Assembly: GCA_035266665.1 (NCBI GenBank)
Contig: DATFMZ010000302.1
Span: 1 to 44,898 of the forward strand
Origin: Gemmatimonadales bacterium
GTDB lineage: Bacteria > Gemmatimonadota > Gemmatimonadetes > Gemmatimonadales > GWC2-71-9
Direction: 5' to 3'
DNA length: 44,898 bases
Shown in pieces: positions 6,230-34,386 of this stretch; the stretch's first letter is position 1; each line of letters begins with the position of its first letter. The translations under genes and the position numbers were made by a program. The notes beneath the pieces are model-generated. The model did not search any database. It saw only the letters and a list, made by a program, of their open reading frames with translations, and was not told where the DNA came from.

Positions 6230-6320
6230 CGTCGCGGCGCCGAGGCGCACCCTGGCGGCGGCGGAACCCCCGCGCCATCTTCGTGTCACACCCTCCGTAT
6301 CATCCCTCAGGTGGAGTCAG

Positions 6321-17091: not shown

Positions 17092-19128
17092 ATGTCACGT
17101 CTCCGCTCGATCTTCGTGGCCCTCGCGGTGCTCGCGCTGCCTTCCGCACTCGTGGCGCAGCAGCACGCGATGACCATCGCCGACTATCTCTCGCTCAAGA
17201 CCGTGGGCGACCCCCAACTCTCCCCCGACGGGAAGACGGTCGCCTATACCGTCACCGACGTCTCGCTCGAGAAGAACGCTGGCTTCACCCACATCTGGCT
17301 CGCCCCGCTCGCGGGCGGCGCACCGCGCCAGATCACGTTCGGGCCTGGCTCGGACATGGCGCCGCGCTGGTCGCCCGACGGGAAGACGCTCGCGTTCATC
17401 TCGACCCGTGAGGACGGCGCCCAGGTCTGGGTCCTGTCCCTCGCCGAGGGCGGCGAGGCGCGCCGACTGACCAAACTCGACAACGGCGCCAACGACCTCC
17501 TCTGGATGCCGGACGGCAAGGCGCTGCTCGTGATCGCCGATACCAAGTGGCCCAAGATGCAAGAGATCGATGAGCGAAACGGCGCCTTCCCCACCGAGGC
17601 GAAGATCTGGACCAACCTCATGTACCGTCACTGGAACGAGTGGCGGGTGGGCAAGCGCCAGCACGTCTTCAAGGTGGACGTGGCCGACGGGACCACCACC
17701 GACCTCACGCCGGTGGAACACGACGTCCCGACCATTGCCACCGTCGGCGCGGGCGACGTCGCGGTCTCGCCCGAGGGGAACGAGATCGCCGTCGCGATGC
17801 ACGGGGACTCGACCGTCGCGGACAATACGAACGTGGACGTCTACGTCATGGGGCCGGACGGCGGGACGATGCGCGATCTCACGTCGCCCGCGCACGGTGC
17901 CGACAACACGCCGCGGTTCTCGCCCGACGGGAGGTGGATGTCGTACATCTCGCTCGAGCGCCCCGGCTTCGAGGCCGACCGCGGGCGGCTGATGCTTCTC
18001 GCCCGGAGCGGCGACAAGACCGGTGGCACGCCCACGGAAGCCACCAAGGGGTGGTCGCTTTCGGTGAGCGCGTACACCTGGTGTCCCAACTCGCAATGCG
18101 TCTATGCGCAGGTCGAAGAGCGCGGCAGTGACGTCATCTATCGAATCGACATCCCGTCGTTCACGCGCACGCGGGTCGAGACCGGCGGCGTCAACACGAA
18201 CATCCAGGTGGGCCCGGACAGCAAGACGCTGGTCTATCTCCACCAGAGCAACACGCAACCCGCCGAGGTCTGGGCGGACGGACATGCATTCACGCACGTC
18301 AACGACTCGGCGGTAGCGACGCTCGATCTTCATCCGCTCGAATCCTTCGGGTTCGTGGGCGCGATGGGCGACTCCGTCTTCGGCTGGATCCTGAAGCCGC
18401 CCCACTTCGATCCCCACAAGAAGTATCCTCTGGTCTACCTGGTGCACGGCGGCCCGCAGGGCGCGTGGACCGACGATTGGCACCCGCGCTGGAACTATCA
18501 GATGTTCGCGTCGCCGGGCTACGTGATCGCCGCGGTCAACTTTCATGGCTCCACCGGCTACGGGCAGAAGTTCACCGACGCGATCTCACGCCACTGGGGT
18601 GACTACCCGTTCGAGGACCTGATGAAGGGGCTCGATGTCGTGTCCAAGCTCCCGTACGTGGATTCGACACGGATGGGCGCGGCGGGCGCCTCGTACGGCG
18701 GGTACATGATCTACTGGATGGAGGGCCATACCCATCGCTTCAAGGCGGTGGTGGACCACGACGGCGTGTTCAACACGGTGAGCGCGTTCGGGAGCACGGA
18801 GGAGCTCTGGTTCCCGATGTGGGAGTTCGGCGGCACGCCGTACGAGGGCACGCCGGATGGCAACCGCGCGCTCTACGAGAAGTTCTCGCCGCTCAATTTC
18901 GTGAAGAACTGGCAGACGCCGATGCTCATCATTCACTCGCAGCACGACTATCGACTCGATCTGTCGCAGGGACTCGAGGCGTTCACGGCGCTGCAGGTGA
19001 TGCACGTGCCGAGCAAGTTCCTCTACTTCCCGAACGAGTTCCATTTCGTCACCAAGCCGCGCGATCGCCGCCTCTGGTGGGGGGTGGTGCTCGATTGGCT
19101 CAATCAGTACCTGCGTCCGGGGCGGTAG
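17092..19128 (+). CDS. S9-family prolyl-oligopeptidase/acylaminoacyl-peptidase-like serine peptidase with TolB-like propeller, secreted
   Basis: ORF 16861..19128 trimmed to ATG 17092 (MSRLRSIFVALAVLALPSALVAQ signal). Repeated SPDGK propeller motifs. GASYGGY nucleophile elbow, HSQHDYRLD. Confidence 0.9.
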   Translation: MSRLRSIFVALAVLALPSALVAQQHAMTIADYLSLKTVGDPQLSPDGKTVAYTVTDVSLEKNAGFTHIWLAPLAGGAPRQITFGPGSDMAPRWSPDGKTLAFISTREDGAQVWVLSLAEGGEARRLTKLDNGANDLLWMPDGKALLVIADTKWPKMQEIDERNGAFPTEAKIWTNLMYRHWNEWRVGKRQHVFKVDVADGTTTDLTPVEHDVPTIATVGAGDVAVSPEGNEIAVAMHGDSTVADNTNVDVYVMGPDGGTMRDLTSPAHGADNTPRFSPDGRWMSYISLERPGFEADRGRLMLLARSGDKTGGTPTEATKGWSLSVSAYTWCPNSQCVYAQVEERGSDVIYRIDIPSFTRTRVETGGVNTNIQVGPDSKTLVYLHQSNTQPAEVWADGHAFTHVNDSAVATLDLHPLESFGFVGAMGDSVFGWILKPPHFDPHKKYPLVYLVHGGPQGAWTDDWHPRWNYQMFASPGYVIAAVNFHGSTGYGQKFTDAISRHWGDYPFEDLMKGLDVVSKLPYVDSTRMGAAGASYGGYMIYWMEGHTHRFKAVVDHDGVFNTVSAFGSTEELWFPMWEFGGTPYEGTPDGNRALYEKFSPLNFVKNWQTPMLIIHSQHDYRLDLSQGLEAFTALQVMHVPSKFLYFPNEFHFVTKPRDRRLWWGVVLDWLNQYLRPGR

Positions 19129-19162
19129 GCGCCACGGCGTGCGCACGTAGTGGCGTCGCGCC

Positions 19163-19636
19163 ATGCGGGTGAGGGACGCCGCCGCGCCGGATGTCGACCG
19201 CCTCGCCGACATCTGGTATGAGGGGTGGCGGGATGCGCACTTGGACATCCTGCCGCCGGAGCTCGCGCGGTATCGGACACGCGAGAGCTTTCACGAGCGG
19301 CTCGTCCGAGATCTGCCGATGGTGCGGGTCGTCGGTCCACCCGGCGCGCCGCTCGGCTTCTGCATGATCCGGGATGACGAACTGTACCAGCTCTACGTCG
19401 ATGCCTCCGTGCGGGGTCAAGGGAGCGCCGCGGTGCTCCTGGCGGATGCGGAGGCACAGCTCGCCGCACGCGGCGTCGAGACCGCGTGGCTCGCCTGTGC
19501 GATCGGGAATGATCGCGCCGCACGCTTCTACGAGAAGCACGGCTGGATGCGCGCCGCGACCGTTCGCACGCCCGTCGAGATCCCCGATGGGGTGTTTCCT
19601 CTCGAGGTCTGGCGCTATGAGAAGCGGCTTGGGTGA
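19163..19636 (+). CDS. GNAT-family N-acetyltransferase
   Basis: 157 aa; LYVDASVRGQGSAAVLL...ARFYEKHGW acetyl-CoA-binding pattern. Confidence 0.85.
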   Translation: MRVRDAAAPDVDRLADIWYEGWRDAHLDILPPELARYRTRESFHERLVRDLPMVRVVGPPGAPLGFCMIRDDELYQLYVDASVRGQGSAAVLLADAEAQLAARGVETAWLACAIGNDRAARFYEKHGWMRAATVRTPVEIPDGVFPLEVWRYEKRLG

Positions 19637-19638
19637 CC

Positions 19639-19665
19639 TGTCACGGGATCCACAGCCCGTGCGTC
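19639..19665 (+). promoter_or_regulatory. ECF41-type promoter-like motif upstream of the CMD/AhpD-like gene
   Basis: TGTCACG-ggatccacagcccgtg-CGTC (6/7 of the -35 heptamer, N16, CGTC). Starts 3 nt after the GNAT stop; 33 nt lie between CGTC and ATG 19699. Confidence 0.5.
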
Positions 19666-19698
19666 CTCTTGGTAGATCCCCCTACCAACAGGAGCACG

Positions 19699-20193
19699 AT
19701 GATGGATACGACCCGCCACATTGACATCGAGCAGATCGCCCCGGCCGCCGTTCGCGCGGTGCTCGGACTGGAACAATACGTTCGCCGGTCGTCGCTCGAG
19801 CCCGATCTCCTCGAGCTGGTGCGCCTCCGCGCCTCATACATGAACGGCTGCGCCTACTGCGTGGACATGCACACGAAGGACGCTCGCGCTGCGGGTGAGA
19901 CCGAACAACGTCTCTATGCCGTACCCGTCTGGCGCGAGACGCCGTTCTTTTCCGCCCGTGAGCGCGCGGCGCTCGCGTGGACCGAGGCGGTGACGGCACT
20001 GAGCTCACGGAGCATTCCCGAGTCGGCACGCGAGCAAGTCAGCTCCGAGTTCACCGATGCCGAGATCGTGGATCTCACGATGGCCATCATCACGATCAAC
20101 TGCTGGAATCGCGTCGCCGTCCCGCTCGGCGCCGACGTGGGGAGCTACACGCCCGGCCGGCATGAAGCGGAGCCCGCGCCAGCCGCTCGATGA
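19699..20193 (+). CDS. carboxymuconolactone decarboxylase / AhpD-like family protein
   Basis: ORF 19633..20193 trimmed to ATG 19699 (AGGAG 5 nt upstream). CAYCVDMH (CxxCxxxH) AhpD-core motif. Confidence 0.88.
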   Translation: MMDTTRHIDIEQIAPAAVRAVLGLEQYVRRSSLEPDLLELVRLRASYMNGCAYCVDMHTKDARAAGETEQRLYAVPVWRETPFFSARERAALAWTEAVTALSSRSIPESAREQVSSEFTDAEIVDLTMAIITINCWNRVAVPLGADVGSYTPGRHEAEPAPAAR

Positions 20194-20839
20194 ACCGGCT
20201 TGTCGGCCGGTAGATCGCTTCCGGGATCTCGGCGAGACGGGAGTGCTGGAGCTTCGGTCCGAGGCCGAAGAACTCCTGGAAGCTCATGATGAGCGGACGC
20301 CAGCGCGTGGGATCGATGCGGTTCGCGTGGCCGTCCATGCGGATCGCGTCGTCCACGTGCACGCGCACTACACGCACCTCGAGTGCCACGAGCCGGCCCC
20401 GCCGCTCGGGATCGCGGCCCTCGAGCTCGTGAATCCCCTCGAGCACGGCTTCCAGCTGCACGGGGCACTCCGCCACGCGCGGCGGTGCCACGCGATCCGA
20501 CGGGACCGGGGTGAGGCCGGCCGTGCCGAACTTGTCGGCCTCGTGGCGGTAGCCCATCGCCACCTTGTGCTCCGGCACGGGTGACGACCCCGTCGTCCGC
20601 GCCAGGCGGTCCACCGCCGCGACCTGATCCACCGACGGCAGGTTGAGCACGCACTCCCCCGACCGCTGAATGTTCGCGGGCGTGTGGGATCGTGCGCCGA
20701 ATCCGAGCATACAACTCTTGCCCAGCCACCACGCCGACGACATCGGTGCGAGGTTCGCCGAGCCGTCGGGGTTGCTCGAGCTCACGAGCACCACGGGGGT
20801 GCCGAAGTAGAAGATCGCGGGGTCGATGACCGAGTGCAT
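20096..20839 (-). CDS. flavin reductase-like (FMN-binding split-barrel) family protein
   Basis: ORF 20096..21130 trimmed to ATG 20839 (AGGAG upstream). FGTPVVLVSSSNPDGSANLAPMSSAWWLG... typical of the flavin-reductase domain. The Arg-rich tail overlaps the convergent CMD gene by 98 nt. Confidence 0.82.
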   Translation of the reverse strand: MHSVIDPAIFYFGTPVVLVSSSNPDGSANLAPMSSAWWLGKSCMLGFGARSHTPANIQRSGECVLNLPSVDQVAAVDRLARTTGSSPVPEHKVAMGYRHEADKFGTAGLTPVPSDRVAPPRVAECPVQLEAVLEGIHELEGRDPERRGRLVALEVRVVRVHVDDAIRMDGHANRIDPTRWRPLIMSFQEFFGLGPKLQHSRLAEIPEAIYRPTSRFIERLARAPLHAGRACSSPRRRRAGRRRDSSS

Positions 20840-20934
20840 GAACGCTCCTGAGGGTGAGACGCCGAACCGCCCTGCGCTCACGTTATCCGCACCGGCCCGT
20901 TGCATCGACCCGAATCTTGCGCGCCTGCCCGAGC

Positions 20935-20961
20935 TGTCACACCACGGCCCGCGCGTCCGTC
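20935..20961 (+). promoter_or_regulatory. ECF41-type promoter-like motif upstream of the OMP-epimerase-monooxygenase unit
   Basis: Exact TGTCACA-ccacggcccgcgcgtc-CGTC (N16). In the divergent intergenic region, with 137 nt to ATG 21099. Confidence 0.6.
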
Positions 20962-21098
20962 TACCGCATGAGAGACGTACTCTCGCGGTGAAACGGGCGC
21001 GCCGATTTCCCATCGCGCCATCACACAACATGCAACCGACCGGTGTCGTCCGCGGCGACGCCGGGCGGCGCACACGATACGAAAGGAACGTGTACGTC

Positions 21099-21695
21099 AT
21101 GTCATTCACACGAAACATCGTCGGAGCCATCGCGCTCTCCGCCCTCCTGGCGGCACCGGCCTACGCCCAGAACCACGCGATCTGGATCGCCGCGAAGGGC
21201 GGTGGGTTCAACGCGGTGACCAATCTCGACTCCGCCGGCACCGCCGACTTCAAGAAGGTCGGCTTCGACGTGGGCGGTGCCATAGGCGTCGACCTTCAGC
21301 GCTACGTCGCCATCCGCGCCGACTTCACGTTTGCCCGCAATCAGCTGCGCGCGGCCGGCGTGCCGACGGGCAACCGGCTCAACCGGTTCTTCTACGACGC
21401 GGCGGTGCAGCTCCAGTATCCCACGGCCGTCGGCGTCGAGCCCTACGTCTTTGCGGGCGGCGGGGCGGTCACCCTCCACGAGGTCGGTACCAGCGGCCAG
21501 AACAAGACCAAGGCGACCGGCACCGCCGGACTCGGCGTGAGCTACGCCGTCCCGGGGACAGGGTTCGGCATCTTCGCCGAGGGCCAGGGATGGCTCTATA
21601 AGGCGAAGGACCTCGGTGGCTCCCTCGCCGACTACGACAAGACGCAGATCGAACTCGCTTGGGGCGGCGGCGTATCGTACCGCCTGCCGTTCTAG
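21099..21695 (+). CDS. outer-membrane beta-barrel protein (OmpW/OMP_b-brl-like)
   Basis: ORF 20826..21695 trimmed to ATG 21099 (MSFTRNIVGAIALSALLAAPAYAQ signal). Alternating amphipathic strands. C-terminal ...GVSYRLPF with terminal Phe typical of OMP beta-signals. Confidence 0.75.
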   Translation: MSFTRNIVGAIALSALLAAPAYAQNHAIWIAAKGGGFNAVTNLDSAGTADFKKVGFDVGGAIGVDLQRYVAIRADFTFARNQLRAAGVPTGNRLNRFFYDAAVQLQYPTAVGVEPYVFAGGGAVTLHEVGTSGQNKTKATGTAGLGVSYAVPGTGFGIFAEGQGWLYKAKDLGGSLADYDKTQIELAWGGGVSYRLPF

Positions 21696-21840
21696 CGTGT
21701 CGCAGCATGCGCTCGATCGGCGCGGCGCCTTCCTTGCGGAGGGCGTCGCGCCCTGCGGCTGTCACGCCGCACGGTCCGCGGCGTCCAGCTGGGTGATCGC
21801 CAACGCGATCGAGCATCACTGGATGCGAAACGCGAAAGGA

Positions 21841-22812
21841 ATGTCGATGTCCGGGAAGACCGTTTTCGTCGCCGGCGCCACGGGGGTGATCGGGCGCCGC
21901 CTCGTGCCGGTGCTGCTGGAGGCCGGCCATCGCGTGACGGCGGTAGGACGCACGGCGGAGAAGCGCGCGCGCCTCGAGGAGGTGGGTGCCACGGCGGCTC
22001 CGGTGGATCTCTTCGACGCGGACGCGGTACGCCGCGCCGTCCGGGGCCATGACGTCGTCGTCAACATGGCGACACACATTCCGCCGAGCAGCCGCATCTT
22101 CGTGCCCGGGGCCTGGCGCCAGAACGACGGCGTTCGGCGCCGCGTCTCCGCGAATCTCGCGGCCGCCGTGCTCGCCACGGGCGCCGAGCGCATGATTCAG
22201 GAGTCGTTCGCGCCCATCTACGAGGATGGGGGCGATCGCTGGATCGAGGAGGACGGGCCGGTGCGCACCGCCCGTTACAACCGCTCGGTGCTGGACGCGG
22301 AAGCGGCGGCCGAGCGCGTGACTCGAGCTGGAGGAATCGGAGTTGTCCTTCGTTTCTCGTACTTCTACGGTGCGGACTCGGACTCCACGCAGGACATGAT
22401 GCGCTACGCGCGCCGGGGGCGGGCACCTGTCATCGGATCGCCCGACGCCTACATGTCCTCCGTCGCGCTCGACGATGCGGCGCGCGCCGTCGTCGCGGCG
22501 CTCGGCGTACCCGCCGGCCGCTACAACGTCACCGACGACCGCCCCGTCACGCGACGGGAATTTGCGGAGACACTGGCCGCGGCCCTCGGCGCGCCGCCTC
22601 CGAAGTTCTTTCCCGCATGGGTTGCGGCGCTGGGCGGCTCACTCGGCGCCATGCTGGCGCGGTCGCAACGGATCTCGAACGCCAAATTCGAGGCGGCGAG
22701 CAGTTGGAGGCCCAGGTACCCCAGCGTGAACGAAGGGTGGCGCGCCACCGTCAGCGAGGCGATGCGCAAGGACGCGAGGTCGAACGGAAGCGCCTCGATG
22801 GGGCGACGATGA
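21841..22812 (+). CDS. NAD(P)-dependent epimerase/dehydratase-type SDR
   Basis: ORF 21616..22812 trimmed to ATG 21841 (AAAGGA upstream). KTVFVAGATGVIGRRLV Rossmann motif. Confidence 0.88.
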   Translation: MSMSGKTVFVAGATGVIGRRLVPVLLEAGHRVTAVGRTAEKRARLEEVGATAAPVDLFDADAVRRAVRGHDVVVNMATHIPPSSRIFVPGAWRQNDGVRRRVSANLAAAVLATGAERMIQESFAPIYEDGGDRWIEEDGPVRTARYNRSVLDAEAAAERVTRAGGIGVVLRFSYFYGADSDSTQDMMRYARRGRAPVIGSPDAYMSSVALDDAARAVVAALGVPAGRYNVTDDRPVTRREFAETLAAALGAPPPKFFPAWVAALGGSLGAMLARSQRISNAKFEAASSWRPRYPSVNEGWRATVSEAMRKDARSNGSASMGRR

Positions 22813-23948
22813 GGAAACGAGCACTCATCGTGGGCGGCGGAATCGGCGGCCTGGCCGCTGCGCTTGCCATGCGAAAGGCGGGATGGGCGACGACGGTCTT
22901 CGAGCGTGCATCAGCCTTCAGTGAAGTGGGCGCCGGACTCTCAGTCTGGGCCAACGGACTCGACGCGCTCGATGCGCTGGGGGTCGGAGCCAAGGTGCGC
23001 GCGGCGGGACGCCGATTCGAAGCCGGAGCGGTGCGCACCACGACAGGGGATGTGCTCTTCAGCCTCGCGACGCAACACGCGACGGACGGCGATAGGTGGA
23101 TCGGGGTGATGATCCATCGCGCCGATCTTCTCGACATTTTGGTCCACGCCGTCGGCACGGGTACGCTCCGCGCGGGAGTGGAGCTTCAGGCGCTCGAGCC
23201 ACGCGGCGAGCGCGTGATCGCGCACTTCACGGACGGCTCGACCGACGACGGCGACGTCCTGATCGGCGCCGACGGGATACACTCCACCGTGCGCCGTGCC
23301 GTCGTCGGCCCCGAGTTGCCGCGATACGCGGGATATACGGTCTGGCGCTGGGTGGCCCCCTTCCCCGCGGAGAGGGTTCTCCCCGGCGAGACGTGGGGTG
23401 CCGGTGCCCGCTTCGGACAAGCGGCGCTCCCCGGTGGGCAGGTTTACGCGTATGCCACGCACGATGCCGCCCCCGGCGGCCGAGCGTCCGCGTCCGGAGG
23501 CGAGCGCGCGGAGATCGAGCGGCACTTCGGCGGATGGCATTCACCAATCCCCGCGCTGATCGAGGCCGCGCCTGAAGGCGCCATTCTTCGGCACGACTGC
23601 TACGACATTCGTCCCCTGCACTCCTGGTGCCGAGGGCGGGTGGCCCTCTTGGGCGATGCCGCGCACGCGATGACGCCAAACCTCGGCCAGGGGGCGTGTC
23701 AGGCGCTCGAAGACGCCGTAGCGCTCGGCCGTCACCTCACCGGCGCGGGCGACGTCGTAGGTGCACTCAAGGGCTACGCGTCGGAGCGCCGTCCGATCAC
23801 CGCGCGGTTCCAGCGGCGCGCGCGCCTCACCGGCGCAATTGGGCAGTGGCGCCATCCCCTGGCACTACGACTACGCAGGAGTCTCGCGCGCAGAGTGCTC
23901 GCACCGCTCAGCGCGCGGGCGATGCGCGCGATGATCGAGAGGGTCTAG
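22809..23948 (+). CDS. FAD-dependent aromatic-ring monooxygenase family
   Basis: ATGA overlap with the epimerase gene. ALIVGGGIGGLAAALAMRKAG FAD motif; DVLIGADGIHS and LLGDAAHAMTPNLGQGA motifs. Confidence 0.9.
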   Translation: MRKRALIVGGGIGGLAAALAMRKAGWATTVFERASAFSEVGAGLSVWANGLDALDALGVGAKVRAAGRRFEAGAVRTTTGDVLFSLATQHATDGDRWIGVMIHRADLLDILVHAVGTGTLRAGVELQALEPRGERVIAHFTDGSTDDGDVLIGADGIHSTVRRAVVGPELPRYAGYTVWRWVAPFPAERVLPGETWGAGARFGQAALPGGQVYAYATHDAAPGGRASASGGERAEIERHFGGWHSPIPALIEAAPEGAILRHDCYDIRPLHSWCRGRVALLGDAAHAMTPNLGQGACQALEDAVALGRHLTGAGDVVGALKGYASERRPITARFQRRARLTGAIGQWRHPLALRLRRSLARRVLAPLSARAMRAMIERV

Positions 23949-24829
23949 CGAGGCACCGACTCCAGCGCACGAAGTTTGTCCGGATTGAGCACCCGGTAGA
24001 CCGCGAGGATCTTCTCGCCGTCGGTATGAATGGCGGTGGCCGCGAACACACGCTCGCCGGCGTAGCTGATCCACGCCGGCTCTCCGTTGAGTCGCCCCAT
24101 CCGAGTGACCAGCATGCCGCGTGTCTTCCACGAGAAGCCGAGCACCAGGCGGGCCACGCGCATCGCGCCCCGGACGATCCGCGTCGCGGCACGCGTCTTC
24201 CCGCCGCCGTCACTTGCCCAGCTCGCATCCTCCGCGAGCAGCGCCACCACCCCTTCCTTGTCGTCCGCCTCGATGGCGGCGATGAAGTCGGTGAGGAGGC
24301 GCTCCTTGGACTCGAGGGAAACCTCGAAGCGCGGCTTGTCGCGGCGCACACGCTCGCGCGCGCGATGGACGATCTGCCGGCAGGCCGCCTCGCTCTTCGC
24401 GAGCGTTTCGGCGATTTCCGCGTAGCCGCAATCGAAGACGTCGTGCAGCAGCAGCGCCGCACGTTCTTCAGGCGCCAGCCGCTCGAGCATCAGCAGAAAG
24501 GCCATCGAGAGGTCGGACTCCAGCTCCGTGCGTTCGTCCGCGCGGCGCCACGGACCGGTGGGGAGCGGCTCCGGAAGCCAGGGCCCGAAGTAGGCGTCAC
24601 GTTCGGTCCGCGCCCGGCGGAGGCGGTCGATCGCGAGCCGGGTGATCACCGTGACGAGCCAGCCCTCGGGCTGGCGCAGGGACGACGTATCTGCTTCCTG
24701 CCACTTGAGATACGTCTCCTGCACGAGATCCTCCGCGTCCTCGATCGCACCGAGCATGCGATACGCGATCCCGAAGAGCCGGGGTCGGGCGCGCTCAAAG
24801 CGCGCGGTCTGATCGGCGATGGAAGCCAT
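23945..24829 (-). CDS. ECF41-group (SigJ-like) sigma-70 factor with fused SnoaL-like C-terminal domain (paralogue B)
   Basis: Sigma-2/sigma-4 regions, YFGPWLPEP linker, and C-terminal DGGGK and NPDKL motifs. In-frame ATGs at 24844, 24835 and 24829; I chose 24829 because the upstream promoter-like motif ends at 24846. The stop shares a CTAG tetranucleotide with the convergent monooxygenase stop. Confidence 0.88.
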   Translation of the reverse strand: MASIADQTARFERARPRLFGIAYRMLGAIEDAEDLVQETYLKWQEADTSSLRQPEGWLVTVITRLAIDRLRRARTERDAYFGPWLPEPLPTGPWRRADERTELESDLSMAFLLMLERLAPEERAALLLHDVFDCGYAEIAETLAKSEAACRQIVHRARERVRRDKPRFEVSLESKERLLTDFIAAIEADDKEGVVALLAEDASWASDGGGKTRAATRIVRGAMRVARLVLGFSWKTRGMLVTRMGRLNGEPAWISYAGERVFAATAIHTDGEKILAVYRVLNPDKLRALESVPR

Positions 24830-24845
24830 GGTCATTACGAACATA

Positions 24846-24871
24846 GACGGACGGGGGGCTGGTGTGTGACA
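24846..24871 (-). promoter_or_regulatory. ECF41-type promoter-like motif upstream of sigma paralogue B
   Basis: Minus strand reads TGTCACA-caccagccccccgtc-CGTC (N15). 16 nt lie between the tetramer and ATG 24829. Confidence 0.5.
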
Positions 24872-24905
24872 GGGAGTCGGCGGCGAGACCGACGGTCGGA
24901 ACGGC

Positions 24906-25385
24906 TCAGGCCTGTTGGCGGAGGTAGGCAGCCAACAGATCGAGCTCCTCAGCATACACGCGATCGAGCAGACCGCGGACGAGACGCCGTTCGACCCATC
25001 CGAGCGGACCCCGGCGTCTCGGGAAGGCGGTCGTGATGGTCACGCTGCATGCGTTCTCGCCGGGACGCGGCTCCACCAGGAAGGACGTCTCCACCTGCGC
25101 ATCGGGATAGGTCTCGACGAGCCGGCGTCCGGGCGCCGGCTCCGTCACGATCCCGCGCATCGTCCGGACGCGACCGGCGACCTTCGTCCGGACGATCAAC
25201 CGGGTTCCGGCACCGGACCCGCCTGCTTCCACCTCGAGACCCGCGAAGAAGCGTGGCGGCAGAATCTTCGGATGGGCCTCACGGTAGTCGGCGAACACGG
25301 CGTACACTCGCCCGGCCGACGCCTCGATGTGCCGGGTGACCGCGACGTCGTACGTCCGGCCGGCGCGTCGAGTGTCGGCGCTCAT
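24906..25385 (-). CDS. SRPBCC (polyketide cyclase/START-like) family protein
   Basis: ORF 24906..25496 trimmed to ATG 25385; about 159 aa. ...IEASAGRVYAVFADYREAHPKILP... pattern typical of SRPBCC ligand-binding proteins. Confidence 0.8.
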   Translation of the reverse strand: MSADTRRAGRTYDVAVTRHIEASAGRVYAVFADYREAHPKILPPRFFAGLEVEAGGSGAGTRLIVRTKVAGRVRTMRGIVTEPAPGRRLVETYPDAQVETSFLVEPRPGENACSVTITTAFPRRRGPLGWVERRLVRGLLDRVYAEELDLLAAYLRQQA

Positions 25386-25428
25386 CGCGAGCGCGTGCCC
25401 ACTGCGGTGTGTGCGAGCATGCGTGTCA

Positions 25429-25824
25429 TCACGTCTCCGAGGTACCGGCAACCTGCTGACCGGCCGATCGTTCGACCGCGGCGGCGAGCGCAACACCCAG
25501 GCCCATTGCGATACCGCCTGCCAGAAGATGCGCGAGCTGGACGACCCAGTGCATGGGCCCCGGCAGGATCCGCCCCTGCACTCGCCCGAACATGACGACG
25601 CCGACTCCCCAAAGGAAGACCACGGCCGCGAAGCCCTGTCGCACCCCCGCGCGAAACGCGAGTACCGCGATCACCCACATCGCGAGCACGAGTGTCGCAC
25701 CGAACACGATGTGCACCGGCAACCAGCTGAAGAGATACCCCGCCCAGATGGCGAGGCCGAGGAGGAGGGCTCCGCCCCCCGCGAGACGAATGAGATGCTT
25801 GAGAGCACGTGCGGCGCCGGCCAT
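25429..25824 (-). CDS. small integral membrane protein (4 predicted TM helices), unknown function
   Basis: 131-aa ORF with four hydrophobic segments and His residues in PVHIVFG and LAHLLAGG. GC3-rich codon usage consistent with neighbours. Has its own promoter-like motif upstream. Confidence 0.65.
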   Translation of the reverse strand: MAGAARALKHLIRLAGGGALLLGLAIWAGYLFSWLPVHIVFGATLVLAMWVIAVLAFRAGVRQGFAAVVFLWGVGVVMFGRVQGRILPGPMHWVVQLAHLLAGGIAMGLGVALAAAVERSAGQQVAGTSET

Positions 25825-25893
25825 GCGGGTCGACCTCCATGCGTGTGTTCGGCTGGGGCGGCGCCCTGCCGCCCTCGTTGTGTCCTGCCGCCC

Positions 25894-26418
25894 TCATGAC
25901 GGGTGAGACCCTGGTGCTGTGACACCCGGGCTCGACGCGGACCGGACGGGCCGCCTGAACACGATCACGAGGTTGACGATCACCGCGGGCACGAGCACGC
26001 CGAGGGCAAGTACCGGCGCCGCGGCCGGAAGGTGTGCGGCCGATCGCACCAGGCGCCAACGCCCGGCCGCGACCACCGTCGCGATCGCGCCCCAGAGCGT
26101 GGTCTCGAGCGCCTGGAGGCACTCGTCGGCGCGGAGATGGAATCCGGTGGCCATGAGGACGATGAGCGCGAGGCCGAGGCAGGCGAGGGGCGTGAGCCAT
26201 GGTAGGCGCCCCGTGGTCATCGGGAGAATCAATCCGGCGGCACCGAGCACCTCGGCGACGCCGATCGCGATCACCAGCGGGCGCGGCATGTCGGAAAAGC
26301 CCGTCCAGCGTTCGAGGCCACGGCCGACGAGCTTCGGGGCGCCCGCGAGAAGGAAGAAGAGCGCGAGGAACCCCTGCGCGCTCCAGAGCACGACATTGAG
26401 CGTATCGGATTGTGGCAT
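25894..26418 (-). CDS. DoxX-family membrane protein
   Basis: 174 aa, four TM helices. ...LFFLLAGAPKL...GVAEVLGAAGLILP... typical DoxX pattern. Confidence 0.85.
   Translation of the reverse strand: MPQSDTLNVVLWSAQGFLALFFLLAGAPKLVGRGLERWTGFSDMPRPLVIAIGVAEVLGAAGLILPMTTGRLPWLTPLACLGLALIVLMATGFHLRADECLQALETTLWGAIATVVAAGRWRLVRSAAHLPAAAPVLALGVLVPAVIVNLVIVFRRPVRSASSPGVTAPGSHPS
25898..25924 (-). promoter_or_regulatory. ECF41-type promoter-like motif upstream of the 4-TM protein / SRPBCC unit
   Basis: Minus strand reads exact TGTCACA-gcaccagggtctcacc-CGTC (N16). Lies inside the last codons of the DoxX gene, with 73 nt to ATG 25824. Confidence 0.6.
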
Positions 26419-26477
26419 CGTATAGCATCTCCCGCGTGGCGATTCATCGGTCAGGCGTCGCGAACTCCACGGGGCAT

Positions 26478-26504
26478 GACACGGGAGGCGGCGTGCGTGT
26501 GACA
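26478..26504 (-). promoter_or_regulatory. ECF41-type promoter-like motif upstream of the DoxX gene
   Basis: Minus strand reads TGTCACA-cgcacgccgcctcccg-TGTC (N16; -10 tetramer TGTC instead of CGTC). Lies between the sigma A stop and the DoxX ATG, with 59 nt to the ATG. Confidence 0.5.
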
Positions 26505-26511
26505 GAGCGGG

Positions 26512-27390
26512 CTAGGTCTCGGGAGGAAGTCCCGCGAGCTTGTCGGGATTGCCGACCGCGTAGACGGTCCGGATGCGGCCGCCTCGAATGTCGAAGATGA
26601 GCGCCGCTTGCGCGTGCGTACCGGCATAGGCGATGAACCCCGGCTGCCCGTTGATCGTGGTCGCACGAAGGCTCGTGCGCGCCGGGGCGAATCGCCGCGT
26701 CGTCCCGATGACGAATCGAGCCACGGCGTTCGGGCCATGAATCGGGTTCAGCGCGGCCCCTGGGATCCGGCCGCCGCCGTCGGCCCAGAGGGTGATGTCC
26801 TCCGCGAGGAGCGCGACGAGGCCGTCGACGTCTCCGGCCGCCGTGGCCCGGGTGAACTGCTCGACGAGCCGCGCGGCATGTGCCTGATCCGGCTCGAAGC
26901 GCGCGTGCGCCGTGCCCACGTGCTTCTTGGCGCGCGTCAGCAGCTGACGGCAGTTCGCCTCCGACTTGTCCACGATGCGGGCAATCTCGGCGTACTCGAA
27001 GGCGAAGACTTCGCGGAGCAGGAAGACGGCGCGTTCGATCGGGGAGAGCCGCTCCAGCAACACCAGGAACGCCATCGAGAGAGATTCGGCAAGCTCGACG
27101 GACCCCGACGGATCCGGGACGGTGTCGGTCACGAGCGGCTCCGGTAGCCAGGGCCCCACGTACGTTTCGCGTTGATGCCGAGCGGAGCGGAGCTGGTTGA
27201 TGGCGAGGCGCGTGACGATCGTGGTCAGATACGCCCGCGGCGCACGCACGTCCACCTCTGGCGCCTCCTGCCACCGGAGATAGGCGTCCTGGACCAGATC
27301 TTCCGCATCCATCACGCTCCCGAGCATCCGGTAGGCGATGGAGAAGAGCAACGGTCTGGTCGATGCGAAGACGTCAGCTCGAGTTTCCAT
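26512..27390 (-). CDS. ECF41-group (SigJ-like) sigma-70 factor with fused SnoaL-like C-terminal domain (paralogue A)
   Basis: ORF 26512..27501 trimmed to ATG 27390. Clearly alignable by eye with paralogue B (FSIAYRMLGS, YVGPWLPEP, LSMAFLVLLERLSP, DGGGR, NPDKL). Confidence 0.9.
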   Translation of the reverse strand: METRADVFASTRPLLFSIAYRMLGSVMDAEDLVQDAYLRWQEAPEVDVRAPRAYLTTIVTRLAINQLRSARHQRETYVGPWLPEPLVTDTVPDPSGSVELAESLSMAFLVLLERLSPIERAVFLLREVFAFEYAEIARIVDKSEANCRQLLTRAKKHVGTAHARFEPDQAHAARLVEQFTRATAAGDVDGLVALLAEDITLWADGGGRIPGAALNPIHGPNAVARFVIGTTRRFAPARTSLRATTINGQPGFIAYAGTHAQAALIFDIRGGRIRTVYAVGNPDKLAGLPPET

Positions 27391-27406
27391 ACGGTTCCGA
27401 ACGCTA

Positions 27407-27433
27407 GACAGACAATCCCTCGCATCTGTGACA
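27407..27433 (-). promoter_or_regulatory. ECF41-type promoter-like motif upstream of sigma paralogue A
   Basis: Minus strand reads TGTCACA-gatgcgagggattgtc-TGTC (N16). 16 nt lie between the tetramer and ATG 27390, the same geometry as at paralogue B. Confidence 0.5.
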
Positions 27434-27559
27434 TCTCGACGAGGGATGCCGGACCTCACGGGGGACCGCGGGCACACCGAGCGCAGGGATTCGGATCCCA
27501 TTCCCCCTGCCGGGGTGTATTACGGCTTTCCCGTCACCCCACCCCGCGCGGAGGAGTCC

Positions 27560-29218
27560 ATGCGATCTCGAGTGGCCCTGGCGAGCGCCCTCGGCGCGCT
27601 CGCGATCATGGCGTGCAGCTCCCAGCAGGCGGCGGGGCCCCCGGCCCCGCCCGCCTGCGGCGGGCGCGAGACGGTCGTCTCGCTCACCGTGGGCACCTAT
27701 ACCAGCGTCGACCCCACCAGCGATTCGGGGTGCGCGACGTTCGCCGCCAACGCCTCGAGCACCGACACCGCCGAGTATCTCGTGGTGGCCCAGGCCGCGG
27801 GCGGCGCCCCCGGACAGACCGGCTCCTTCGCGCTCAGGACGCTCGCGCTCACCGCAACCGCATCCGTCACGGGCCCTCCCATGCACGTTGAAGCGTCGGC
27901 GCCGACGACGGCCGCGACGTTCGACCACTTCCTGCGCGAGGTGGGCGAAGGCATCGTTCAGCCGGCGCGGCCGCCCGCATCGTTCCTGGCGCCGCGCTTT
28001 GACGTGACGGGCGCCGCGGGGGCACCGCCCACCGTCGGCTCGCTCCGGACCTTCACCGTCTGCGCCACGCTCACGTGCAGCAGCTTCACGTCCGTCACGG
28101 CCAGGGCCCGCGCGGTGGGCACGAACGTCGCCATCTACGTGGACACGCTCGCGCCGACCCCCGGGTTCTCCACCGCCGACGTCGACACGCTGCTCCAGAC
28201 GTTCGGTCAGCAGCTCTATCCCGCCGATACGAATGCCTTCGGTGGCCCCACCGACATCGATCAGAACGGCGTCGTCATCGCGCTGTTCACCGGCGTGGTG
28301 AACTCCCTCGTCACGAAGGCGCAGTGCACGTCGAGCGGGTTCATCGTCGGCTACTTCTTTCCCGGAGACTTGAGCCCGGCCGTCTCGCAGACCTACAACC
28401 ACGGCGAGATCATGTACATGCTCGCCCCCGATTCGCTCGGTACGCTCAGCTGCCCGCACACCGTGACGTCGCTCAAGCTCCGCATCGGCGCGACGTTCAT
28501 GCACGAGTTTCAGCACATGATCAACTACGGTCAGCACGTGGTCGATCGGAATGGCCCGGCCGAGCAGGTCTGGCTCGACGAGGGACTGTCCAAGTACGCG
28601 GAGGAGCTCGGCGGCCGCACGTTTCTCCCGTCCGATCCGACGGACTTCTCGTACTACGTCACCGATGACGTCTACGACGGGGGGAACTACCTCGCCGCGA
28701 CCGGCGACCATGCGCTGATCACGTCCAGCGATCAGAATCTGCCCGACGTCGGCGCGGGATGGCTGTTCGTGCGCTATCTCGTGGATCGGTTCGGCACGGG
28801 GATCACGCGGAAGCTCACCGAGACCACCAATATCGGCACGACGAACGTGGCGGCGGCGACGGGCGAACCTTTTGCCACGACGGCCGGTGATTGGGCGCTC
28901 GCCAACTGGGTGTCCGACCTACCCGGATTCACGGCGCCGCCCGAGCTCAAGTACACCTCGTGGGCCTTTCGCGCGACGTTCGCGGCGGCCAATCAGCAGG
29001 ACCCAGCGGACTTCCCATCGCCGTTCCCGTTGGTGCCGCTTCGGATGCTGTCCGACTCGGTCAACGTGAGCGGCGTGCTGCACGCCGGATCGGGCACCTA
29101 CGTGCGCGTACTGCAGCCGCCGAGCGGCGGAGCGTTCACGCTTCGCTTCGACGGCGGGGGTGTCGTCGCACTCTCCGATTCGCTCGTGCCGCGGCTCGAC
29201 GTGGTCCGGACGCGCTGA
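27560..29218 (+). CDS. lipoprotein with gluzincin-type HExxH...E metallopeptidase motif (possibly M30/MA-clan-like)
   Basis: ORF 27338..29218 trimmed to ATG 27560 (GAGGAG upstream). MRSRVALASALGALAIMAC lipobox. ATFMHEFQHMINYGQH...VWLDEGLSKYAEE zinc-site-like motif. The family assignment is my recollection only. Confidence 0.72.
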   Translation: MRSRVALASALGALAIMACSSQQAAGPPAPPACGGRETVVSLTVGTYTSVDPTSDSGCATFAANASSTDTAEYLVVAQAAGGAPGQTGSFALRTLALTATASVTGPPMHVEASAPTTAATFDHFLREVGEGIVQPARPPASFLAPRFDVTGAAGAPPTVGSLRTFTVCATLTCSSFTSVTARARAVGTNVAIYVDTLAPTPGFSTADVDTLLQTFGQQLYPADTNAFGGPTDIDQNGVVIALFTGVVNSLVTKAQCTSSGFIVGYFFPGDLSPAVSQTYNHGEIMYMLAPDSLGTLSCPHTVTSLKLRIGATFMHEFQHMINYGQHVVDRNGPAEQVWLDEGLSKYAEELGGRTFLPSDPTDFSYYVTDDVYDGGNYLAATGDHALITSSDQNLPDVGAGWLFVRYLVDRFGTGITRKLTETTNIGTTNVAAATGEPFATTAGDWALANWVSDLPGFTAPPELKYTSWAFRATFAAANQQDPADFPSPFPLVPLRMLSDSVNVSGVLHAGSGTYVRVLQPPSGGAFTLRFDGGGVVALSDSLVPRLDVVRTR

Positions 29219-29245: not shown

Positions 29246-30874
29246 TCACGGAGCGGCGTTGAGGGCCTGCCGAACCGCGTACTCGACGTCTTCGATCGCC
29301 CACGGCTTGGGGATCACGCGGACGCCGCGCGGCACCAGGAACGTCTTCCCGGGTCGATCCTGGTATCCGCTTGACAGGAGAAACGGCACGGAAGGGCTCC
29401 GGTCGCGGATCGCGCGGTACACGTCCGCGCCGCTGAGGCCGGGCATCATCATGTCGGACATCACGAGATCGATCTCGCCCGCGTGCGCCTCGAAGAGCGC
29501 GATGCCCTTCGAGCCATCCTCGGCGATCAGTACGCGATAGCCCAGATAGTGCAGTACGCGCTGACCGGTGCGACGCAGGCTCGCGTCGTCCTCGATCAAG
29601 AGGATCGTTGCCCCGGTATGCGTAGGCGCCGTGTGAGTCGGTGCGGGGGGCTGCGCGCGGGGCATCTCCGTGGTTCGCGGGAAGTAGAGATGGACGGTCG
29701 TGCCGCGTCCCGGCGCGCTCTCCAGATCGAGGAATCCGTTCTGCTGCTTCATCAATCCGTAGACCATGGAGAGCCCGAGGCCGGAGCCCACGCCCGGAGG
29801 CTTGGTCGTGAAGAACGGCTCGAGCGCCCGGGTCCTGGTCTCTGCGTCCATTCCGTCGCCGCCGTCCTCGACCGAGATCCGAATGAAGTCGCCGGGCGAG
29901 AGCCAGGCCGGCCGCCGCGTATCCGCGCCGTCCACGTGCTCCGGCGTCACGATGACCCGTACGCCTCCGGACGTGAGCGTCGCGTCGCGCGCGTTGGTGG
30001 CGAGGTTCAACAGGATCTGTTCGACGGCGACGACGTCGCACAACGCGATGCACGCCGGGGCGATCTCGACATCCAACGCAACGTGCTCCGGGATCACCTG
30101 CCGCAGCATCGACTCCGCTCCGCGCGCGACGGCGCTCAGGTCGGTGGGCACGACGTCGAGACTCACGTTTCGGCTGAAGCCGAGGAGCTTGGCGATCATC
30201 GTCGCGCCGCGGCGCGCGGCGCCGCGCAGCTCCGCCAGCTCGGTCCGCGTCTCGGCATCTTCGGGATCGAGCGATGCCGCGATCAAGGAGGCATTCGCCA
30301 TGATGACCGAGAGCACGTTGTTGAAGTCGTGGGCGACACCCGCCGTCATCCGCCCTACCGCCTCCATCTTCTCCGCCTGCCGGCGGCGGGCTTCGAGAGC
30401 TTCGCGCCCGATGCCGCTCCCGTGAAAGTGCACCTCGATCGCGCGCACCCCCGGCGTATCGAGGCGGTTCACCAACTTCACGGCGAGCCACGGGAATTCG
30501 CACGTGGGATCCGGTGTCTTGATCGTCGCGGGGATCGCGACGTCCGGTTGCTCGAGACACCGACCGAACACGTCCTGCGCGTAGGCGACGTCGTCGGGCA
30601 CACAGAGGTCGAAGCCGAGCCGGCCGACGAGCTCGGCGGGAGGGTAGCCGAGGTAGCGCTCGGCAACGGCATTCGCATACCGGATGACGCCCGTGCCATC
30701 CACGAGGAGCATCCCCTCGTCGCTGTTTTCGACGAGCGTGTGAAAGTGAGCGTCGCGGGGTGTAGGGGAGCGCGGCGGTCGGCGGCGTGTGGCACCGGCG
30801 ACCGGTGGGAGAGGACTCGTGCGCGGGAAGCCATCCCGCCGGGGCGGCCCTCCGAATGGCCAGGGCCGATCCAT
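29246..30874 (-). CDS. hybrid sensor histidine kinase / response regulator (PAS-HisKA-HATPase-REC), cytoplasmic
   Basis: AAGGAG SD 7 nt before ATG 30874. PAS (LVENSDEGMLLVDGTG). H-box GVAHDFNNVLSVI. G-boxes DGGDGMD...GSGLGLSMVY. C-terminal REC (ILLIEDD...DLVMSDMMMPGLSG). Confidence 0.92.
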   Translation of the reverse strand: MDRPWPFGGPPRRDGFPRTSPLPPVAGATRRRPPRSPTPRDAHFHTLVENSDEGMLLVDGTGVIRYANAVAERYLGYPPAELVGRLGFDLCVPDDVAYAQDVFGRCLEQPDVAIPATIKTPDPTCEFPWLAVKLVNRLDTPGVRAIEVHFHGSGIGREALEARRRQAEKMEAVGRMTAGVAHDFNNVLSVIMANASLIAASLDPEDAETRTELAELRGAARRGATMIAKLLGFSRNVSLDVVPTDLSAVARGAESMLRQVIPEHVALDVEIAPACIALCDVVAVEQILLNLATNARDATLTSGGVRVIVTPEHVDGADTRRPAWLSPGDFIRISVEDGGDGMDAETRTRALEPFFTTKPPGVGSGLGLSMVYGLMKQQNGFLDLESAPGRGTTVHLYFPRTTEMPRAQPPAPTHTAPTHTGATILLIEDDASLRRTGQRVLHYLGYRVLIAEDGSKGIALFEAHAGEIDLVMSDMMMPGLSGADVYRAIRDRSPSVPFLLSSGYQDRPGKTFLVPRGVRVIPKPWAIEDVEYAVRQALNAAP

Positions 30875-31279: not shown

Positions 31280-32095
31280 GTGAGGCGAAGTTGGATCGCG
31301 ATCACCTCCCTCACCGCCGTCGCACTGGGTACCTCCTCGTGCGGCTCTCGCCACTTGAGCACGCTCGACCGCGCGCGCGCCGCCGGCATCATTCGCGCCG
31401 CATATGCCCCTGAAGCCCCTTACGCGTACCGCGACAGCGCGGGCCGTGTCACGGGCCAAGCTCCCGAGCTGCTCCGCGAACTCACGCGTCGACTCGGCAT
31501 TCCGCACGTCGAGTTCGTGCAGACAGAATTCGCCCTGCTGATCCCGATGCTCCAATCCGGGAAGGTGGACGTGATCGCCTCGGGCATGTTCATAACCCCG
31601 AGACGGGCCACGCTCGTGGCGTTCAGCGATCCCACGCTATCCGTCTATGAGAATCTACTCGTTCCACGCGGCAACCCACGCCATCTGACCTCATACGCGA
31701 GCGTCGCGCGTGACACCACCGTCCATCTCGCCGTCCTGGCCGGCTCCGTCGAGGAGGCGACCGCACGAGCCGACGGTGTGGCAGCATCCCGCTTGCTCAT
31801 CGCGCCCGACGTGCGCACCGCAAACGCGGCATTCACGGCAGGCCAGGTGGACGCGCTCGCGATCTCGGCGCCGACCGCGCGCCGCGCGGCGGCCGGCCTC
31901 CAGGCAGACGTCGTTCCGCTTCCCGGGGGGCGCTCCTCGGCGGCGTTCGCGGTACGGCAGGACGACCGCCATTTCCTCGCGGCGCTGGATTCTACGCTTC
32001 GGATCGTGCTCGCGGCTCCGGCGTACGCCGGGTTCGTCGGTCGATTCGGGTTCCTCCCGGACGAGGTCCCGGGAGCGGCGGACTCCACGCCATGA
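31280..32095 (+). CDS. family-3 periplasmic solute-binding protein (amino-acid type), lipoprotein-like signal
   Basis: ORF 31235..32095. I favour GTG 31280 (GGAGG 8 nt upstream), giving MRRSWIAITSLTAVALGTSSC. SBP_bac_3-like ...IRAAYAPEAPYAYRDSAGRVTG...GKVDVIASGMFITPRR... ATG 31235 remains possible. Confidence 0.85.
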   Translation: MRRSWIAITSLTAVALGTSSCGSRHLSTLDRARAAGIIRAAYAPEAPYAYRDSAGRVTGQAPELLRELTRRLGIPHVEFVQTEFALLIPMLQSGKVDVIASGMFITPRRATLVAFSDPTLSVYENLLVPRGNPRHLTSYASVARDTTVHLAVLAGSVEEATARADGVAASRLLIAPDVRTANAAFTAGQVDALAISAPTARRAAAGLQADVVPLPGGRSSAAFAVRQDDRHFLAALDSTLRIVLAAPAYAGFVGRFGFLPDEVPGAADSTP

Positions 32096-34239: not shown

Positions 34240-34386
34240 GACCGAACCAATCCTGACGCGACGCCCTTGCCCCGCTGCACGTACGGTCGTAGTCTAGCGG
34301 CAGCAGAGGAGCGGCATACGAGCCACCCCACCGACGCGCGTCCCCACCCCCCCGACCAAAGTCGCTTTACCCGTGCCGCCACCATC

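Follow-up and report, generated by a model that had tools for sequence, protein, structure and literature searches.

A predicted regulon of two ECF41 sigma factors and seven promoter motifs in a Gemmatimonadales bacterium

Introduction

ECF41 is among the most widespread groups of extracytoplasmic function (ECF) sigma factors. According to a review, the extension at the C-terminus of such proteins inhibits the sigma factor through contact with the linker, and activation is thought to be a conformational change. The sequence TGTCACA-n16(+/-1)-CGTC, derived from 285 sites, has been described as an ECF41-specific promoter that lies upstream both of the ECF41 genes themselves and of nearby genes for carboxymuconolactone decarboxylases, oxidoreductases and epimerases (COE genes), and a WLPEP linker has been described as characteristic of the group (Wecke et al. 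2012, PMC3426412). In the same work such promoters were mapped in B. licheniformis (Ecf41Bli) and R. sphaeroides (Ecf41Rsp), and it was concluded that ECF41 proteins in general control one gene or operon (PMC3426412). The cluster described here occupies positions 19639-27433 of a 44,898-nt stretch of DNA from a Gemmatimonadales bacterium (contig DATFMZ010000302.1), the whole of which is called the window. It encodes two ECF41 (SigJ-like) sigma factors, named sigA and sigB, and carries seven copies of the ECF41 promoter motif. We put at roughly 85% the probability that it is a self-contained regulon made up of these two sigma factors and seven promoters.

The locus shares with Ecf41Bli and Ecf41Rsp the same bipartite promoter, placed ahead of both sigma and COE genes, and, like the ECF41 group as a whole (Wecke et al. 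2012), it has carboxymuconolactone decarboxylase (CMD), oxidoreductase and epimerase genes as neighbours. Judged from its gene content, the seven promoters would probably activate some ten genes for stress response and detoxification. These would be arranged in seven units, namely cmd (the CMD gene); omp (a small outer-membrane protein, OMP); an epimerase gene with a FAD monooxygenase gene; sigB; the gene of a four-transmembrane-segment (4TM) protein with an SRPBCC gene; doxX; and sigA. The promoter of each unit is named after its first gene, as in P_cmd or P_epim.

Seven motif copies in the window

The pattern TGTCACR-N{15,16}-YGTC was scanned over both strands of the whole window. It matches exactly seven times, against a mean of 0.39 in dinucleotide-preserving shuffles, whose maximum was four matches, and none of 100 such shuffles reaches seven. 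All seven matches fall within the cluster, and the remaining 37 kb holds none. The hexamer TGTCAC occurs 20 times on the two strands; a -10 tetramer follows at the correct spacing in all seven cases inside the cluster and in 0/13 elsewhere. Sites 20935 and 25924 carry the full consensus, TGTCACA-N16-CGTC, and the other five deviate from it by a G at position 7, a T as first -10 base or a 15-nt spacer. Of these deviations, the G and the shorter spacer also occur in the published material (PMC3426412).

Each site stands before a co-oriented start codon, six of them in intergenic DNA and one (25924) overlapping the final codons of doxX. About 9% of the position/strand combinations in the region lie 10-137 nt 5' of a co-oriented start, the range that the seven sites span, so the chance of finding all seven placed in this way is about 5e-8. 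Beyond the motif, a repeat search detected no similarity among the seven sites, which therefore are not copies of a repeat element; the longer repeats in that search are only paralogous segments of the sigma genes. The motifs and their placement are thereby established, and the dependence of all seven promoters on the sigma factors is a prediction from sequence.

A sequence-only reading of this DNA had listed six motif copies. All six are present at their coordinates and on their strands, and a seventh, at 21760(+), had been overlooked. Its statements that the copies lie on the coding strand of the following gene in intergenic DNA or at a gene end, that 20935 and 25924 are exact consensus sites and that chance is an unlikely cause hold for the enlarged set as well. 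It had given the ECF41 consensus and the COE neighbours in agreement with Wecke et al. (2012, PMC3426412), and the three neighbour classes it named were all recovered by domain search, as CMD, epimerase and FAD monooxygenase. Its proposed unit of omp, epimerase and FAD monooxygenase survives in part: the latter two form one operon, since the monooxygenase start overlaps the epimerase stop (ATGA), and omp is its own transcription unit because a hairpin and a separate promoter precede the epimerase gene. Across the window, the only other TGTCACA is indeed the one it had pointed out at 6284(+), which lies 37 nt 5' of a gene for a GMC oxidoreductase (6321-8015) and is followed by no correctly spaced -10 tetramer.

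When one mismatch was allowed, the window yielded only scattered matches within genes, with a single exception near a start codon. This match, CGTCACC-N16-AGTC at 27532-27558(+), ends 1 nt before the ATG (27560) of a putative lipoprotein gene divergent from sigA; it was left uncounted as probably due to chance, since neither box is perfect and the gene would be left without a leader. A sigma-70 promoter scan of 19000-28000 returned none, and the terminator-like matches with U-tracts in this interval fall within genes. An Rfam scan of 18500-28500 gave only mir-128 and BTH_s19, both under their gathering thresholds and treated as noise.

The two sigma factors

Both sigA and sigB encode full-length ECF41/SigJ proteins. 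Like the ECF41 group (Wecke et al. 2012), they combine sigma2, the WLPEP linker (YVGPWLPEPL in sigA, YFGPWLPEPL in sigB), sigma4 and, at the C-terminus, an extension of some 100 aa that is SnoaL-like, and no anti-sigma factor accompanies them. The two proteins pass the cutoff (271 bits) of the NCBIfam SigJ subfamily NF007214 with 354.7 bits for sigA and 317.7 bits for sigB; sigA also passes TIGR02957 SigX4, with 360.9 bits against a cutoff of 323.25, and each protein covers the 281-position TIGR02957 model and the 293-position SigJ model from end to end. Sigma70_r2 and Sigma70_r4_2 are above their Pfam cutoffs in each protein, and regions 2 and 4 are the only sigma regions present, which is the ECF architecture. 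The C-terminal domain of sigA reaches 34.4 bits on SnoaL_2 (Pfam cutoff 27), and the extension of about 100 aa is found in both proteins; the motifs DGGGK and NPDKL can be read in the sigB translation. Over its full length (residues 7-289) sigA aligns with the whole of M. tuberculosis SigJ (PDB 5XE7), with E = 9.6e-61. Membership of the ECF41 family is established for both.

Pfam and NCBIfam domain searches, the only kind made for this purpose, found no anti-sigma domain in the cluster or in neighbouring genes, and the 131-aa 4TM protein looks too small, judged from its sequence, to hold a soluble one. The genes of the CMD protein, the NAD-dependent epimerase and the FAD monooxygenase all lie in the neighbourhood, within 5 kb.

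Conservation of the promoters in related loci

Conservation of the motif in orthologous loci, which the sequence-only reading had proposed as a check, was observed in loci of the sigA lineage, in loci of the sigB lineage and in locus L122 (loci used for comparison carry L numbers). Orthologues of sigA with 69-76% protein identity occur in about 25 Gemmatimonadales genomes. Equivalents of P_sigA are present in most of these loci, with the -10 element 8-17 nt before the called start, and most sigA-lineage loci have a second motif copy directly past the sigA stop or before a DoxX gene. DoxX homologues adjoin sigA orthologues in at least nine Gemmatimonadales loci, and 4TM homologues come after sigA or DoxX in L002 and L025 and are also present in L122. 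Relatives of sigB with 53-58% identity were found in about 35 metagenome loci, nearly all of which adjoin a CMD gene. The motif precedes the sigma gene in most of them, typically 10-11 nt from the sigma ATG, and often precedes the CMD gene too.

The closest loci allow the individual promoters to be followed. L128 and L129 are identical copies of the window sequence from other samples. L081 is about 97% identical to the window outside the epimerase gene and L130 98.6% identical, and in both the -35 and -10 boxes are kept while the spacers vary. In L122, where the OMP is 79% identical, the gene order is cmd-omp-epimerase-sigB-SRPBCC-4TM, and sigA, DoxX and the monooxygenase are absent; strict motifs stand at omp, sigB and 4TM, and the site at cmd has one -35 mismatch (CGTCACA). 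Specifically, P_cmd is kept in L081; P_sigB is kept in L081, L122 and L130 with a varying spacer and both boxes fixed; and P_4TM is kept in L122 (TGTCACG-N16-CGTC-ATGA) and L130, with TGTCACA-N16-GGTC at the 4TM homologue of L025. P_omp recurs with a similar leader length in L081, L122 (136 nt), L125 (140 nt) and L123 (113 nt, with a TGTC -10). Conservation of these promoters across genomes is established. Strict matches distant from such genes are roughly as frequent as chance predicts (6 in about 1.1 Mb of actinobacterial loci). The actinobacterial relatives of sigA (L026-L080, about 50% identity) almost never have the strict motif and for that reason are uninformative on the promoters of the window.

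The omp gene has 275 homologues at E <= 1e-5, and the named ones among the best are from Gemmatimonadales or Gemmatimonadetes. In L123 and L125 the strict motif lies 113 and 140 nt upstream of the OMP homologue, and the surrounding 6-8 kb are free of ECF41 genes; three further homologues come after MarR genes and do not have the motif. Other OMP homologues behind MarR genes sit by RND efflux or DoxX genes. The predicted omp leader is unusually long, about 113-140 nt, with its length kept across genomes and GC-rich hairpins inside. The leaders compared were 20962-21098 of the window, 7865-8000 of L122, 5861-6000 of L125 and 7888-8000 of L123; the alignment holds five sequences, too few to judge conserved RNA structure. 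For the sigma genes of both ECF41 lineages (the window; L001-L025, L082-L121) the distance from the -10 element to the called start is about 8-17 nt, so short that the sigma mRNAs would have little or no leader and could not accommodate a Shine-Dalgarno sequence.

Some related loci show further variants. A 202-aa ECF sigma factor encoded in L005 (7275-7946, minus strand), downstream of a strict motif whose -10 is CGTC, possesses regions 2 and 4 and lacks the SnoaL-like extension; either the factor would be ECF41-like and truncated by nature, or its gene would be frameshifted. L002 contains, around 13960-14200 and 3 kb from sigA-DoxX-4TM, a divergent pair made up of a CMD gene and a second ECF41 gene of about 35% identity, and the region between the two has GGTCACA-N16-xGTC boxes instead of TGTCACA. 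These boxes may represent a third promoter subclass; the pair was set aside, being a more distant paralogue with GGTCACA-like boxes. A further difference concerns the epimerase gene, which over window positions 21766-22620 is about 67-80% identical to its L081 counterpart, against about 97-100% across the rest of the cluster. Identity falls from within the -35 box of P_epim onwards and recovers close to the 3' end of the gene, a pattern that looks like an allelic replacement by recombination.

Two proposed promoter classes

The conserved sites appear to fall into two classes. The first -10 base is T in 35 of the 38 sigA-lineage sites and C in 38 of the 39 sigB-lineage sites (Fisher p = 3e-17, a value to be read with the sites being phylogenetically related and not independent). 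The spacer is always 16 nt in the sigA lineage and 15 or 16 nt in the sigB lineage, and the base after the -10 element is usually A in the former and usually T in the latter. Scored with position weight matrices trained separately on the two lineages, sites 26504, 25924 and 27433 come out as sigA type, and sites 19639, 20935, 21760 and 24871 as sigB type. The sigma factors differ in parallel, with three lineage-fixed differences in region 2 (R52/E57, Y54/W59 and N65/D70). What is new here is that a TGTC -10 appears to track the sigA lineage and a CGTC -10 the sigB lineage. Because the -10 classes track two sigma lineages, the window looks like two joined ECF41 modules: an L122-like sigB module beside a sigA-DoxX module.

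The proposed mechanism follows from these data and from analogy with characterised ECF41 proteins. The fused SnoaL-like domain would keep each sigma factor inactive, taking the place of a separate anti-sigma factor, until a signal relieves this control and lets the sigma factor bind core RNA polymerase. The active sigma factor would then transcribe its own gene as well as its targets, which would amount to positive autoregulation. The comparative data point to partly separate promoter sets for the two paralogues. The sigA module, which combines a spacer of strictly 16 nt with a TGTC -10 that AT usually follows, would serve sigA, doxX and perhaps 4TM-SRPBCC, and the sigB module, with T as the usual base after its CGTC -10 and a spacer of 15 or 16 nt, would serve sigB, cmd, omp and epimerase-FAD monooxygenase. 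On the minus strand, sigA, doxX, 4TM, SRPBCC and sigB follow one another in the same orientation, and neither of the two junctions that were folded, 4TM-SRPBCC and SRPBCC-sigB, shows a conspicuous hairpin, so read-through could couple sigA activity to sigB expression. A stronger version, in which two ECF41 paralogues with insulated specificities (governed mainly by the first -10 base and the one that follows the tetramer, TGTCA versus CGTCT, and by spacer tolerance) form a two-tier circuit that in Gemmatimonadales extends to unlinked targets such as the OMP family with its leader of about 140 nt, is offered as a tentative proposal that we hold to be rather less probable than even.

Weighing the evidence

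Several observations count against the regulon or against its division into modules. At the level of the regulon, Wecke et al. tested three further sub-consensus matches found genome-wide, and none responded to the sigma factor (PMC3426412), so the motif alone is not proof; moreover, the three ECF41 factors with mapped targets each have a single target operon, which makes seven promoters unusual. The flavin reductase gene is the only one inside the cluster with no ECF41 motif upstream. Among the sigma factor scores, sigB has 322.2 bits on TIGR02957, about 1 bit under the cutoff, and 17.7 bits on SnoaL_2, again under the Pfam cutoff. P_epim, with G instead of A at position 7 and 15 nt between its boxes, is the weakest of the seven sites; the corresponding position in L081 has TGTCAT-N15-CGTC, with a -35 mismatch, and L122 has no counterpart within one mismatch. 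At the level of the modules, the T/C split comes from related sequences, and homologous leader sequences supply part of the matrix signal. P_4TM scores as sigA type despite its CGTC -10, and its counterpart in L122 lies beside a sigB-type sigma gene in a locus with no sigA. P_sigA is weakly of the sigA type (+5.0, or +0.4 without the first -10 base).

These last points feed the strongest alternative, in which these are ECF41 promoters but the sigma factors do not divide the work between them: all seven would be read by either one, or by the only one that is functional, and the T/C difference would reflect separate ancestry of two promoter sets instead of specificity. The -35 element and the GTC core are common to all seven sites, the published ECF41 logo pools sites with -10 variants such as TGTT and CGTC (PMC3426412), and both the mixed character of P_4TM, accompanied in L122 by a sigB-type sigma gene only, and the weak assignment of P_sigA fit this account. 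It is harder to reconcile with the retention of T in 35/38 and C in 38/39 sites while the spacers diverged freely, which argues for selection on the first -10 base within each lineage. Both -10 classes also occur in one genome and so do not represent taxon-wide drift, and the lineages have fixed substitutions in sigma region 2. Single -10 base differences reportedly separate the SigX and SigW promoters of B. subtilis, a finding attributed to Qiu and Helmann in 2001. On balance, an undivided regulon remains a contender, rather short of an even chance.

A second alternative takes TGTCACA as the operator of a DNA-binding repressor or activator instead of a -35 element, since TGT and ACA are inverted half-sites of a short palindrome (TGT-N-ACA) and some OMP homologues adjoin MarR-family regulator genes. 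A symmetric site, however, would not need a one-sided [C/T]GTC at a fixed distance of 15-16 nt, nor an orientation toward the downstream gene, which is seen in 7/7 sites here and in nearly all of about 80 elsewhere. Moreover, Pfam and NCBIfam searches of the cluster detected no transcription-factor gene besides the two sigma genes, the motif is absent from the OMP loci that adjoin MarR genes, and it is experimentally an ECF41 promoter in two species (PMC3426412). This makes an operator very improbable. Although GTC-containing words are common in so GC-rich a genome (65-70%), an origin of the matches in chance, base composition or dispersed repeat remnants is effectively refuted by the shuffles and the empty 37 kb, the placement probability, the lack of extended similarity among the sites and the conservation of their positions across genomes with diverged spacers.

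Gene content of the cluster

The regulon of two ECF41 sigma factors is therefore preferred, and its features are collected in Table 1. The DNA has 65-70% G+C, and genes were for that reason picked by third-position GC together with domain matches.

Table 1. Features of the cluster and its borders; distances run from the end of the -10 element to the start codon.
Feature	Position	Strand	Remarks
GNAT acetyltransferase	19163-19636	+	
P_cmd, TGTCACG-N16-CGTC	19639-19665	+	33 nt 5' of cmd ATG; begins 3 nt past GNAT stop
cmd, carboxymuconolactone decarboxylase/AhpD-like, 164 aa, CxxC (CAYC)	19699-20193	+	Pfam CMD 76 bits; NCBIfam ahpD_dom 61 bits
Flavin reductase	20096-20839	-	
P_omp, exact TGTCACA-N16-CGTC	20935-20961	+	137 nt 5' of omp ATG
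omp, small outer-membrane beta-barrel, 198 aa	21099-21695	+	Pfam OMP_b-brl 30.5 bits
Perfect 15-bp GC-rich hairpin between omp stop and P_epim	21719-21752	+	-44.5 kcal/mol
P_epim, TGTCACG-N15-CGTC	21760-21785	+	55 nt 5' of epimerase ATG; overlooked by the sequence-only reading
NAD-dependent epimerase/NmrA-like oxidoreductase, 323 aa	21841-22812	+	Pfam Epimerase 66.5 bits, NAD_binding_10 66 bits
FAD-dependent aromatic-ring monooxygenase, 379 aa	22809-23948	+	Pfam FAD_binding_3 86.5 bits
sigB, ECF41/SigJ-type sigma factor, about 296 aa	23945-24835	-	ATG 24835 or 24829
P_sigB, TGTCACA-N15-CGTC	24846-24871	-	10 nt (ATG 24835) or 16 nt (ATG 24829) 5' of start
SRPBCC/polyketide-cyclase-like ligand-binding protein, 159 aa	24906-25385	-	downstream of 4TM; Pfam Polyketide_cyc2 54.1 bits
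4TM protein, 131 aa	25429-25824	-	
P_4TM, exact TGTCACA-N16-CGTC then ATGA	25898-25924	-	73 nt 5' of 4TM ATG
doxX, DoxX_2-family membrane protein, 174 aa	25894-26418	-	Pfam DoxX_2 54.2 bits
P_doxX, TGTCACA-N16-TGTC then AT	26478-26504	-	59 nt 5' of doxX ATG
sigA, ECF41/SigJ-type sigma factor, 292 aa	26512-27390	-	SnoaL_2 C-terminal domain
P_sigA, TGTCACA-N16-TGTC	27407-27433	-	16 nt 5' of sigA ATG
Putative lipoprotein	27560-29218	+	

The hairpin downstream of omp folds better than shuffled sequence (z = -3.63; 0/200 shuffles fold as well) and is probably a terminator that separates omp from the epimerase unit, a role deduced from its position since it has no U-tract. Hairpins at the 4TM-SRPBCC junction, at the SRPBCC-sigB junction and after cmd are no stronger than those of shuffled sequence, and no terminators are claimed there. 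The flavin reductase reading frame converges on cmd and overlaps its 3' end by 98 nt. The best NCBIfam matches of the monooxygenase are PRK06753 and HpxO-like, both under cutoff, and the 4TM protein has no family match in Pfam or NCBIfam. Three genes for PAS-HisKA-HATPase-receiver hybrid histidine kinases flank the cluster, at 29246-30874(-), 32092-34239(+) and 34267-36705(+), and a similar kinase gene lies between the flavin reductase and cmd genes of L122 (4539-6857).

As for function, the cluster brings together an AhpD-like CxxC protein, DoxX, SRPBCC, a reductase of NmrA type, a hydroxylase of aromatic rings and a small OMP, a domain content which suggests that it answers stress from oxidants, electrophiles or aromatic compounds. 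With around ten predicted targets placed under an ECF41 motif, the locus gives a richer and testable hint at the role of this group than the single mapped operons do, and the hint is toward stress of the redox, electrophile or aromatic-compound kind. As two paralogues of one genome whose -10 elements can be told apart, sigA and sigB offer a natural pair for studying how closely related ECF sigma factors avoid cross-talk, and could supply orthogonal parts for synthetic circuits. Should the insulated two-tier circuit be real, sigA would drive the membrane module and, by read-through, sigB, which in turn would drive the module of enzymes and OMP; the idea that an ECF41 factor governs just one adjacent operon would then be overturned. 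The general importance is moderate, because the underlying mechanism is already known.

Comparison with described ECF41 systems

The closest solved structure is that of M. tuberculosis SigJ (PDB 5XE7; Goutam et al. 2017, PMC5766207), and the match to it spans SnoaL_2 and the C-terminal NPDK motif. SigJ comes from an actinobacterial source and has another genomic context, and its identity to sigA, read off the alignment, appears to be about 45%. A CMD protein with a CxxC motif is the target of an ECF41-type promoter in S. meliloti, in the RpoE9/SMb20029 system (Lang et al. 2018, PMC6180224), as would be the case for cmd in the sigB module. Overexpression of RpoE9 revealed one target, co-transcribed with the sigma gene (PMC6180224), whereas cmd lies 4 kb from sigB in the window and has its own promoter.

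Compared with Ecf41Bli and Ecf41Rsp, which have a single target operon each, the window has seven promoters and about ten genes. It also differs from them in placing two paralogous sigma genes in one cluster, in predicted targets outside the COE classes (DoxX, OMP, 4TM and SRPBCC) and in two promoter subclasses that appear to track the two sigma paralogues. A literature search on ECF41 together with DoxX found no paper. ECF41 factors acting through their own promoters are a known mechanism; it is the unusually large, two-sigma architecture of this cluster that goes beyond precedent.

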